Origin: Owenia fusiformis
Lineage: Eukaryota
Assembly (NCBI GenBank): GCA_903813345.2
Contig: CAIIXF020000001.1
Location: forward strand, 28,396,001 to 28,460,000
Direction of reading: 5' to 3'
DNA: 64,000 nt
The position numbers were made by a program. Positions 46,790-50,703 of the stretch are shown here, one piece after another. The first letter of the stretch is position 1. The number at the start of each line of letters is the position of its first letter.

Positions 46790-49700
46790 CTACAATACAA
46801 GACAATACGCAATGATATTAATTGGAATTCCTAGCAATCTGACTGTTTTATTTTATTATGACGTCACTATATCCCATGCTTTATCATCTAAGTCATCGTT
46901 AACATTTGAGTTCAACGCTGGTGGAATACAGACATGAAAAACAAGACAATTTTTATACATTGGGGTTTGATTGCATGCCTATTAGACCTTCTAAAGACAA
47001 TATTACATGTTAGTGAAGCCGAGTAAAACATTACATGTACACCTTAAAAACAGGATCCATATAGGAAATATGAACATTTAAGCACATACCTCTACTCTTT
47101 GTGCTAGCAGCGAGGGTTTGAAGTTAGATTTCACGACAACTTTGACTTCCATCTTTTGTCTTCCAATCTCTCTTACCAGAGGGATGACACGGAAGGGTAG
47201 ACTTATGTCCTTAGTTGTTCTGTATCTGTAATGAAATATTATCTTTTCTAAAGGGAAATTCATTATTTTTCAATTTCCTTACATTTCATGTACCAGAAGA
47301 TCCACGCCAAAAAAACATATCCATTCAAAATGCTAACATTGGTGTGGATTACAAATTTTATCTGGAGGGATAACATGTTATGACAAGTGAACTATTGGTC
47401 TTTCCTTCACACATTTACATGCATGGGGGCTTTAAGTGGTATCCATAATCTATACCCCCACACTGTAGCCATCACACTATGGGCCCTTGACCATTTGGAC
47501 AGTACCTTTGTAATAAAGCAAGCCATTGGTGTTTGTATTAAATCAAGCCGTTGGTCTTACCTCATAAGTTCATATTCACCATCAGGGGGAATGAAGCTGA
47601 TGCTGTGCTCTGTCTCAAACTTGCTGAGCTTGACACACTGGTGGAACTGGCAATCATCTATGGCAATGGATGTCTTCCCACTACTAGAAATATAGAATAT
47701 TGTACATCAATACTGTGTATAAATTGGTAAATAATACATATGTACATGTACTTGGTCATATGCATGTGTATGCATCTTCATGTTTAATGTGATATAATAG
47801 ACTTTTATACACACAAATCAATGGCTCCTGAATACATATACAATCAATATAAATCTTGCGCTTGTAACTGTACTTAACCCATCATACATGTACAAGTACA
47901 GATGACCACGAGCTCTATTATTTTGTGTTCTAGTTGATCAACATTTTTTAAATCATTCATGAAAAAGATACATGTCTCAATATACATTATATTTTCATGT
48001 AATAAGATACAGTATAAAACATCTACATATATATCTTTTTGTGATAATAGAGAATTTAAGCTCGCAATGTTTTTCACAACCTAAATGCGGACGTAAAATA
48101 TTTAAGCGATGCATTTGTATAGGCGAATGGTCATATGTATAGGTTGGCATTTCGATTTTAAACTCCCTAATATCATATGAATACTGTTAACATGGTAAAT
48201 ACAATGTAATATGTTATTAAAGATTTATTTCTCTTCCCTGCACAGGAAATTTTCCTTCTTTCTCATCTACAACCAATAGGGGAATGTGCACATTCAGCAT
48301 ATTCTCACCTTATATACAGTAATATTGCAATAAAAAGTATGCACATTCATTCTCTGATAAAACCCTTTTCGACACCAAGCCAACAATTAAGATACCTTTA
48401 ACCTCTTGAATACCCAGATTGACGGATATATCTGTCACAAATAAAATCCATTTGGAACCCAGAGCGACAGATATATCTGTCACATAATTTTTCATTAAAA
48501 CTGCTCTAACTTTGGAATGTATGTAATGGGTCTATGTTTACTATTCTTATAAAATCAAATATCAAACATTGTGTTTTTAGATGTAAATATCAAGACAACT
48601 GGCAGAAAATGAAAAATGCTCTGGTTTCAAACCCCTTTTAGAGGCTGGTATTCAAGAGGTTAAGCAAAGTATGCAAAGCATTTGTAGAGAGAGGCTTCAG
48701 AAGCGTTGGTCAAATGACAAAGTTTTTTCTTAGTTAGGAAGGGATTGTGATTGATTTCGAATACCTTTGAGTTGGGAGGGGGGTTGGGGTTGATTCTCTT
48801 CTGATGTCGTTAAAGCAAATTGCAGTTTATCAAATCCCATGCAGTATTTAAATATTAAATATAACAATGTAGGGACACATGGGAGGATTCTCTTTCTATT
48901 AGCCCAAACACAACATGCAATATATCGTAGAAGTGGAAACTTTGACGTAACAGAACTTTTGGCGAGATGGTCCCTAAAACACTGATGCTGAATAGTATAT
49001 TGACCAACATACAACCAAGGACTCAATAATATTCACTGAGTTATGATCAGCATTACAGTATTTCTGAAGTCAAATATTGGGAGAGGCTCCCAACATTACA
49101 ATATTTCCAAATTCGCCAACCACTTTCTATATGACAGAGCAAGACACACAGTGATAAATATCGCACTTTGGAGCAGAGCAAAAATGGCCACCATGTAATT
49201 TACCCAGAATGCCCAAAATGTAATCAGATCTCGGTACGATTCTCTTGCATCTGTAAACATTTCAAGTTGAATGGATAAGTGTTTTTCCTGGAATTTTGAT
49301 GATGAAATGCCTGGCAGTACAAGATGGCGAGAGTTTTATAGTGCAATAAAAATTAGGTCCCTGAAGTTTAACATTGGTGTAGCCTAACTTCTGTAATTAA
49401 TGCATTCATTGCTCATGCAATAGTACACTAGGGGGCAAATGATACAGAAATTTCTGTAATCGCATGACCCCTACTGTTCACACACTGACAAGTTAAATAT
49501 TGTTAAAACATAACATTTTCAATGAAGATAACTAAAATATAAACAATAACATTTGAACAATAGAACAGTAGAACAGAAAGTTGGTAGCATATTGTTAGCA
49601 TCAGCTGTTAGAGGATCTGCTCTAAGCCTCAAGCTAACCTACCCTCCTTTACTGGTGTCACTTAGCACCTTGCCTTTACTTTCAGTAGCCACTTTATCAT

Positions 49701-50703
49701 TGATTCCAAACTTGCACTCAGGCATACCAGAGAGGTAGCTCTTCATGAGAATCTTGCCTGCCACATGTGAGCTTAGCACCTGACCTACAAGAGAGACACA
49801 ACAGCAATATGAGGACATCTAGTATGTACAACTTCACCTACCCCTTGCTAGGATCACTTGAAACTTTTGCCTTGCTCTCCATGGATACTTTATCGTTGAT
49901 GCCAAATTTGCACTCAGGCATCCCACTCAGGAAGCTTTTGATCATGATTCTTCCTGCGACGTGTGCACTGAGGACTTGGCCTGTAAGTGCAAGTAGACAG
50001 ACATTCATACAAGTCTGGAGTCTAAAATATAGAGAAACTGGTAGGAAGAAGACAGGTTACACAAAGAACAAATAGACCAAAGAATAAATGCTTGAGCAAA
50101 GATGGTGTAGGAGATAAATTCCAGAGCCTGTTTCTCAAAATAAAAGAACATTATATTCTCAAAAAGCACTGGAGTAAGTACAGCACTGTCAAAAATTTCA
50201 AAATTACATGCCACCCTATTTAAAATCTGTTTGCACCCTGTTGTAAGATGAAATATTAACACATTTTGAGCAAAATAGTTATAATTTGAAGCCACAACCC
50301 TGTTAAGGTCACAGATCGCGATTGGTGAAATAAATTATGTTACCATGACAAATGGTAAAATGAATGGTGTTACCATGTTAAATTGTGAAATGAATGATGT
50401 TACCATGCCAAATTGAGAAATGAATTGTACTTCATGCATCGTAAATTCCAGATAATTCAAAACAACTTGAAGAATTTTAATCATGGGTGAAATATTTTAC
50501 AAAACTGAACATGAACCAAACAAATGCAAAAATGTCCAAAAAGAAGTTCCCAATAATTTCCTGGTTTCCACATTTCTATGATATCAGAAATAAAACACAA
50601 TAATAAAAATTTAAAAATAAAATCTTACCAATCTGCAGATTGAGAATTAATATAATTAAAAGAAAAACATTGGTTCCTCGTGTAACAACAACAGGGTTTG
50701 TCA

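Follow-up and report, generated by a model that had tools for sequence, protein, structure and literature searches.

Does Owenia fusiformis make one AP-2 mu protein or two? AP-2 mu is among the most conserved proteins of clathrin-mediated endocytosis, and it is usually treated as having one form per genome. In a stretch of 64,000 nucleotides (nt) of the O. fusiformis assembly GCA_903813345.2 (contig CAIIXF020000001.1, positions 28,396,001 to 28,460,000 of the forward strand; hereafter the window, whose own coordinates, counted from 1, are used throughout), the gene for this protein, AP2M1, carries two adjacent, homologous versions of one coding exon, which we call exons 6A and 6B. From the anatomy of the gene and the signature of selection that both copies bear, we think it probable (roughly 0.78) that 6A and 6B are mutually exclusive alternative exons derived from an old tandem duplication.

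All coding exons of the gene were recovered in order by tblastn with two full-length AP-2 mu proteins (P0009 and P0006), and the junctions were scripted on GT/AG. The features are as follows (a slash marks an exon-intron junction).

45690-52261, minus strand: the complete AP2M1 coding region, found by tblastn with P0009 and P0006 and with junctions set by script.
52261-52188, 52046-51944, 51634-51472 and 51269-51187, minus strand: exons 1 to 4.
50760-50895, minus strand: exon 5, with the donor AAG/GTCAGT; it ends in LLMSPQ plus the first base (G) of the split Gly189 codon.
49981-50759, minus strand: intron 5, 779 nt, preceding exon 6A.
49842-49980, minus strand: exon 6A, the upstream copy, 139 nt, phase 1 to 2, with Ile202, Phe205 and an SSDPSK loop.
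49785-49841, minus strand: the 57-nt spacer intron between 6A and 6B, with GTAGGT as its first and TTGTAG as its last bases.
49643-49784, minus strand: exon 6B, the downstream copy, 142 nt, phase 1 to 2, with Met202, Tyr205 and one extra Gly.
47684-49642, minus strand: the intron from exon 6B to exon 7, 1959 nt.
47561-47683, minus strand: exon 7, whose acceptor is a tandem TAG/TAG, so that the exon starts at 47683 or 47680.
47225-47090, 46789-46692, 46253-46142 and 45824-45690, minus strand: the exons after exon 7, stop codon included.

Splicing of these exons yields a protein of 433 residues with 6A and of 434 residues with 6B, each with a single terminal stop and each 91-92% identical over more than 430 residues to AP-2 mu of the molluscs Patella, Argopecten and Ylistrum and of the annelid Ridgeia. 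Both copies of exon 6 match AP-2 mu proteins at E values of 1e-13 to 1e-16, well beyond what chance would give; against individual mu chains, exon 6A gave about 4e-15 to 8e-15 with those of AP-2 and 6.5e-06 to 1.5e-05 with those of AP-1. The near-identical full-length protein matches carry, in precomputed annotation, PF01217 (the N-terminal, longin-like domain) and PF00928 (the mu homology domain). Judged by these matches, the gene is that of AP-2 mu rather than of another mu adaptin.

The two copies of exon 6 are adjacent and homologous, of similar length and equal phases, and have usable AG/GT sites. The acceptor of 6A ends in CACTTACAG and that of 6B in CTCTCTTGTAG, the latter preceded by a strong and the former by a weaker pyrimidine tract; the donor is GG/GTAGGT in both. 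The earlier note on this stretch had described tandem homologous exons of 139 and 142 nt, 57 nt apart, both phase 1 to 2 and with good splice sites, and had placed the junctions at 50760, 49980, 49842, 49784, 49643 and 47683; all of this was correct.

Some further features of the gene are recorded here in their own right. The acceptor of exon 7 is of the NAGNAG type (47680-47686, minus strand), and either start is in frame, with one Ser gained or lost (KG-S-GKTS vs KG-GKTS). Intron 5 holds three 30-nt direct repeats (50325-50428). Directly upstream of the start codon (52261) lies a 66-nt tandem repeat (5.7 copies with 91% matches, 52344-52716), which is likely to be part of the 5' untranslated region or the promoter region, and just past the 3' end of the gene lies a 155-nt tandem repeat (5.0 copies with 98% matches, 43514-44294).

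The reading frame limits how the two copies can be combined. Exon 7 begins with the last base of a split Gly codon, and the joins 5+6A+7 and 5+6B+7 are both open. Stop codons are met in 5+6A+6B+7, in agreement with the statement of the earlier note that including both copies shifts the frame, as well as in 5+7 and when the spacer between 6A and 6B is kept; in the last case an in-frame TAG follows directly after the end of exon 6A. Because the other combinations run into stops, only an mRNA with exactly one copy of exon 6 can encode AP-2 mu.

Comparison of the two copies with each other indicates how long both have been maintained. Exons 6A and 6B share 36 of 46 residues and 95 of 138 bases, the remaining 43 bases being different and a 3-nt indel separating the copies in addition. 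At first and second codon positions, 80 of 92 sites are identical (87%), and at third positions 15 of 46, which is close to random; where the same residue is encoded by a degenerate codon in both copies, 25 of 35 codons differ synonymously and 10 are the same. Since third positions are randomised and first and second positions are 87% identical, the duplication is old and both copies remained under selection at the protein level for most of their history. Third-position identity over a 31-residue core is 13/31 between 6A and 6B and 9-17/31 between these exons and their counterparts in other phyla; as the former value is not above the latter, synonymous sites are saturated, and synonymous sites therefore serve neither to date the duplications nor to match them with one another.

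The selection signature was also gauged with a simulation of neutral drift, in which one copy drifts (20000 runs per level) and runs are scored for an open frame together with at most 12 changes at first and second positions. At 0.4 substitutions per site a fraction of 0.00005 of the 20000 runs retained both properties, and at 0.6 or more none of 20000 did so. The third-position difference between the actual copies (31/46) implies a divergence far greater than the simulated 0.4-0.6 substitutions per site. Neutral drift past about 0.2-0.4 substitutions per site in either copy is thus excluded. The copies are also about equally close to their orthologues, with best matches of 65-89% for 6A and 69-90% for 6B. 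Both keep the 22 invariant columns of a small exon alignment (A1) and likewise Asp231, and by a manual count each departs from the spiralian consensus at about five of the first 39 residues. Taken together, these results establish that the two copies were translated and under selection during most of the long time since they arose. The earlier note had argued for an old duplication with purifying selection on both copies, and the shared residues, the synonymous differences and the drift simulation all bear this out.

The same counts speak to two other explanations of the pair. One is that two alleles, or a collapsed repeat, were set in tandem by the assembly. Artefacts do occur in this gene family, as in the Exaiptasia model P0002 with its identical repeated block; alleles and assembly duplicates, however, would be near-identical, whereas 6A and 6B differ by 43 of 138 bases and a 3-nt indel, mostly at third positions, and each has splice sites of its own. 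We regard the chance of an artefact as next to negligible. The other is that the second copy is mainly regulatory, double inclusion or skipping giving a degraded transcript that tunes the level of AP2M1 (regulated unproductive splicing). The premature stops met on double inclusion and on double skipping are in keeping with such a role, but a poison exon needs no conservation of its protein sequence, and yet first and second positions are largely identical while third positions are randomised. Moreover, residues invariant across animals are kept in both copies, and the 57-nt spacer makes double inclusion unlikely. A mainly regulatory second copy is, in our judgement, quite improbable.

In a separate observation, a run of 14 bases, ATGCCTGAGTGCAA (Met209-Pro-Glu-Cys-Ly), is identical in the two copies (49907-49920 and 49711-49724, minus strand), against a background of randomised synonymous sites in the rest of the exon. 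It may reflect chance, a past conversion tract or a splicing signal.

The duplicated exon encodes part of the cargo-binding domain. The match of exon 6A to the 435-residue AP-2 mu chains of solved structures spans residues 189-232 and, because this alignment starts at residue 189, position 15 of the exon is Lys203, which is kept in both 6A and 6B. In the passages of PMC5694535 that deal with the YxxPhi signal, the tyrosine hydroxyl is described as hydrogen-bonded to Asp176, Lys203 and Arg423 and the ring as packed on Phe174 and Trp421. The gene in the window has all five of these pocket residues: Phe174 and Asp176 in exon 5 (NELFLDVLE), Lys203 in 6A and 6B, and Trp421 and Arg423 in the last exon (IKWVRY). 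Five differences between the copies surround Lys203 (A/S at 194, R/K at 199, M/L at 201, I/M at 202 and F/Y at 205, given as 6A/6B), and five more fall in the variable loop that follows (residues 221, 222, 226, 229 and 232); 6B has its extra Gly besides. The AlphaFold2 model of AP-2 mu from the brittle star Amphiura (32-row alignment) is poor and of low confidence, with a mean predicted local distance difference test score (pLDDT) of 45.6 and values below 50 for residues 119-283. The earlier note had assigned the exons to mu2 residues 189 to about 236, with Lys203 kept in both, and had contrasted the peptides RIMIKSF and KILMKSY; the alignment to AP-2 mu chains supports the assignment, and the peptides were read correctly. 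Its proposal of two tissue-specific isoforms with different cargo or regulatory properties is a conjecture.

Is the pair peculiar to this gene? Public metagenome contigs were scanned with the exon 6 alignment, and 80 loci were kept, 28 of them cDNA-like or intronless and 52 genomic-looking, the latter corresponding to 36 distinct exon types. A single copy within the flanks (up to 3 kb) was found in 31 of the 36 types, an intact tandem pair in two (L056 and L010), and decayed partial copies upstream of a working exon in three (L045, L057/L034 and L061). At L056, exons of 142 and 133 nt are separated by a spacer of 99 nt; at L010, exons of 139 and 163 nt are separated by 1290 nt. Both loci have AG/GT sites, and all four exon lengths are 1 modulo 3.

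L056 and the read-through fragments P0001 and P0335 match AP-2 mu of brittle stars. Among the NCBI models for Amphiura filiformis (XP_072036645-51; P0302, P0304, P0188, P0303 and P0301), X1, X4 and X5 have the upstream version of exon 6 and X2 and X6 the downstream version, the models being otherwise identical save for an independent 12-residue insert. A Logan contig of 1644 nt encodes an uninterrupted protein of 432 residues with the upstream version (P0187); the simplest explanation for it is a transcript, already spliced, from a related brittle star. Only one type of exon 6 was present in the proteins fetched from vertebrates, sea urchins, starfish, sea cucumbers and crinoids. The remark in the earlier note that no such pair is known in vertebrate AP2M1 thus holds for the vertebrate proteins fetched; taken to mean that the O. 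fusiformis pair is unique, it does not, as the brittle-star models swap the same exon.

Several side observations came from the same survey. The bivalve-like locus L061 contains five 107-nt partial repeats of the 5' half of the exon (1935-2586), the annelid-like loci L034, L045 and L057 have one or two decayed partial copies each, and P0003 has an upstream remnant; exon 6 seems prone to local duplication. The Exaiptasia model P0002 was rejected as an exon pair, as its two identical copies of a longer block represent a duplication in the model or the assembly. The 12-residue insert of Amphiura and its relative, IKQQFGDQPLPK, is optional and lies in the inter-domain linker (P0302, P0304 and P0188 vs P0303, P0301 and P0187). 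Finally, where 13 conserved residues are kept in the related transcript P0187, the Amphiura models of NCBI have ASMSSTPAAGSF, which points to a frame error either in the models or in the assembly.

How might one copy be chosen and the other left out? In the mechanism that we propose, the donor of exon 5 would be joined to 6A or to 6B, and the chosen copy would then be joined to exon 7, with a mu2 of 433 or 434 residues as the outcome, different at 10 of 46 residues and by one Gly. The 6A-to-6B join would probably be blocked sterically, the distance from the 6A donor to any 6B branch site being predicted at about 22-32 nt. Frameshifted transcripts, with both copies, with neither or with the spacer kept, would presumably be removed by mRNA surveillance; the stops themselves are observed. 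Both copies would be used today, and there would be two AP-2 complexes unlike in function.

Exclusion by steric hindrance is of the type of alpha-tropomyosin exons 2 and 3, in which the upstream donor is too near the downstream branch site, and exclusion by pairing of a docking site with selector sequences in the RNA is of the Dscam and 14-3-3 type. In AP2M1 the spacer of 57 nt compares with 141-1959 nt for the other 10 introns. Judged by eye against the branch-site consensus, the closest candidate in it is CTCAT, whose A lies 32 nt from the donor of 6A and 25 nt from the acceptor of 6B. An incompatibility of U12- and U2-type sites was set aside, as both donors are GTAGGT and, by the consensus, ordinary U2-type. 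In the literature, mutually exclusive splicing of tandem exon duplicates is presented as general and common, with recurrent cases known (PMC3342872), and its fidelity is attributed to close exon proximity, regulators and mRNA surveillance (PMC3585155).

A number of observations weigh against the use of both copies as proposed, or against the mechanism. The signal of selection covers most of the time since the duplication and not the present, so that a recently silenced copy would look alike. Steric blocking by the 57-nt spacer is no more than plausible. Furthermore, because the spacers of L056 and L010 are 99 and 1290 nt, proximity is not a general mechanism for exon 6 pairs. There are 36 inverted-repeat pairs within 47500-50900; most of the 25 that were listed are short and imperfect, and none of these 25 joins the flanks of the exons to one another in a revealing way; the fold of 49600-50020 is not more stable than those of shuffled sequences (z = +1.55, with 95 of 100 shuffles folding at least as well). 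Competing RNA structure is thus not supported as the exclusion mechanism. More weakly, a protein identical to either exon was absent from the protein searches of cluster representatives, which show only representatives of clusters at 90% identity, so that the species' own proteins could sit inside one, for example the cluster of P0009 with its 152 members.

The first of these points bears on the possibility that one copy is now unused, either recently silenced or a pseudo-exon that is nearly always skipped and has not yet decayed, which would leave one protein in effect. Duplicates of this exon can die, as the decayed partial copies beside the functional exon in L034, L045, L057, L061 and P0003 demonstrate, and the acceptor of 6A has the weaker pyrimidine tract. 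Yet the frame is open and AG/GT sites are present in both copies, whose donors are identical (GTAGGT), both have departed from the spiralian consensus to about the same extent, and drift past about 0.2-0.4 substitutions per site is excluded for either. An intact pair is kept, moreover, in brittle stars, where it is modelled as alternative isoforms. We therefore consider an unused copy unlikely, and mutually exclusive use of 6A and 6B remains the reading that we prefer.

That the same exon is paired in the window, in brittle stars and at L010 raises the question whether the pairs arose once or more than once. A signature is common to the three lineages: Ile or Val stands at residue 202, beside Lys203, in the upstream copy, together with an SSDP[ST][KR] loop, while the downstream copy has Met202 and no SSDP. 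The 40 distinct 31-residue cores found among 334 proteins comprise 32 with Met at residue 202, 5 with Ile and 3 with Val. When residue 202 and the loop are taken together, 238 different combinations are seen; SSDP is confined to the three types of the upstream copies, and none of the 223 Met202 types has it. A search with a profile built from these upstream copies against 1.84 billion representatives revealed no further lineage in the best 150 of 1391 matches: these 150 add only brittle-star-like (P0335) and L010-like (P0017 and P0054) pieces, and a match identical to the window exons is absent from them.

The shared upstream signature favours either an ancient shared pair or strong convergence, and the data do not discriminate between the two. 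A shared origin is opposed by the lineage-specific residues that both copies of a pair carry (Ile216 and Lys225 for the window, Met216 and Gln225 for brittle stars), and it would require that most lineages lost one copy. A tree of the exons (31 rows, 51 columns) groups 6A and 6B of the window as sisters, though weakly (67/73). By the approximately unbiased test, a constraint that unites all upstream copies is not rejected (p-AU 0.119), and one that unites copies 1 and 2 of the brittle stars is marginally rejected (p-AU 0.035); the tree cannot decide between one origin and several. We suggest tentatively, and with the odds against it, that an A-type and a B-type exon predate the split of protostomes and deuterostomes and were lost in flies, nematodes, vertebrates and most other animals, or else that the division into two types evolved three times. 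In either event there would be two functionally distinct AP-2 adaptors, differing for example in the binding of tyrosine signals or of regulators.

The remainder of the window contains several unrelated features. An exon fragment at 1384-1719 (minus strand), possibly extending to about 5975, matches RNA polymerase Rpb1 domain 2 (E 5e-18), and it seems that a gene for a large subunit of RNA polymerase is cut off by the left edge of the window. At 23101-26241 (minus strand) there is an uninterrupted open reading frame of 1047 residues with many TPR repeats and a weak match to DUF294, a putative nucleotidyltransferase domain (E 1e-4; 22.6 bits against a cut-off of 21); being intronless, it stands out in a region that is otherwise intron-rich. 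Tandem repeats of 147 and 287 nt (3.9 and 1.9 copies) lie at 30486-31047, followed at 31751-34298 by an array of 40.5 copies of a 63-nt unit with 97% matches; the open frames of this array, present on both strands, are due solely to its periodicity. A reverse-transcriptase reading frame at 54531-55730 (plus strand; RVT_1, E 1.4e-34) probably belongs to a retroelement resembling long interspersed nuclear elements, and a nearby reading frame of 151 residues (58695-59147) has no match in Pfam.

What would the pair mean for AP-2? If both exons are used, O. fusiformis would have two AP-2 complexes that differ in the strand bearing Lys203 and in the adjacent surface loop, and thus two naturally occurring variants with which to study the influence of this part of the domain on the binding of cargo or regulators. 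Mutually exclusive splicing that arises from tandem duplication is of a known kind, and the pair in the window is a further case of it. The AP2M1 pair is undescribed in the papers turned up by a full-text search, although supplementary exon catalogues could still list such cases, and the arrangement is already implicit in the NCBI gene models of a brittle star and of amphioxus. The comparative result outweighs the single case: at least three lineages have exon 6 twice, with a common signature in the upstream copy, and amphioxus has the next exon doubled. Outside the usual model organisms, isoforms seem to have diversified repeatedly in this part of the cargo-binding domain.

Among the known systems, Amphiura is like the window in having the same exon (residues 189 to about 236) in two tandem versions of the same phases, with Ile202 and SSDPTK in the upstream version and Met202 in the downstream one. 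It differs in belonging to an echinoderm lineage, with residues of a deuterostome type (GMNDK and D[KR]Q) in both copies, and in the longer spacer seen at L056. L010, a metagenome contig with 54% G+C to which the fragments P0017 and P0054 belong, also resembles the window in its intact tandem pair with AG/GT sites; its upstream copy has Val202, Trp205 and SSSDPSR and its downstream copy is canonical. Unlike in the window, the spacer is 1290 nt long, and proximity for that reason cannot enforce exclusivity there. In Branchiostoma, model X1 (P0285) and models X2 and X3 (P0314 and P0315) have one exon swapped in the same N-terminal part of the cargo-binding domain and are identical in the rest, but the swap concerns the following exon (SIAIDDC...ELMR), which corresponds to exon 7 of the window; in B. 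floridae its versions read VAATPGKTSVAIDNC...DEECELMR and VSATGKSSIAIDDC...DGEYELMR. The classic pairs, such as alpha-tropomyosin exons 2 and 3, FGFR2 IIIb and IIIc, and those of ion channels and DSCAM, are like the window pair in consisting of adjacent homologous exons of like length and phase, with one per mRNA. In those systems both splicing and function have been shown by experiment, whereas the AP2M1 pair of O. fusiformis is known from its genomic anatomy and its signature of selection.

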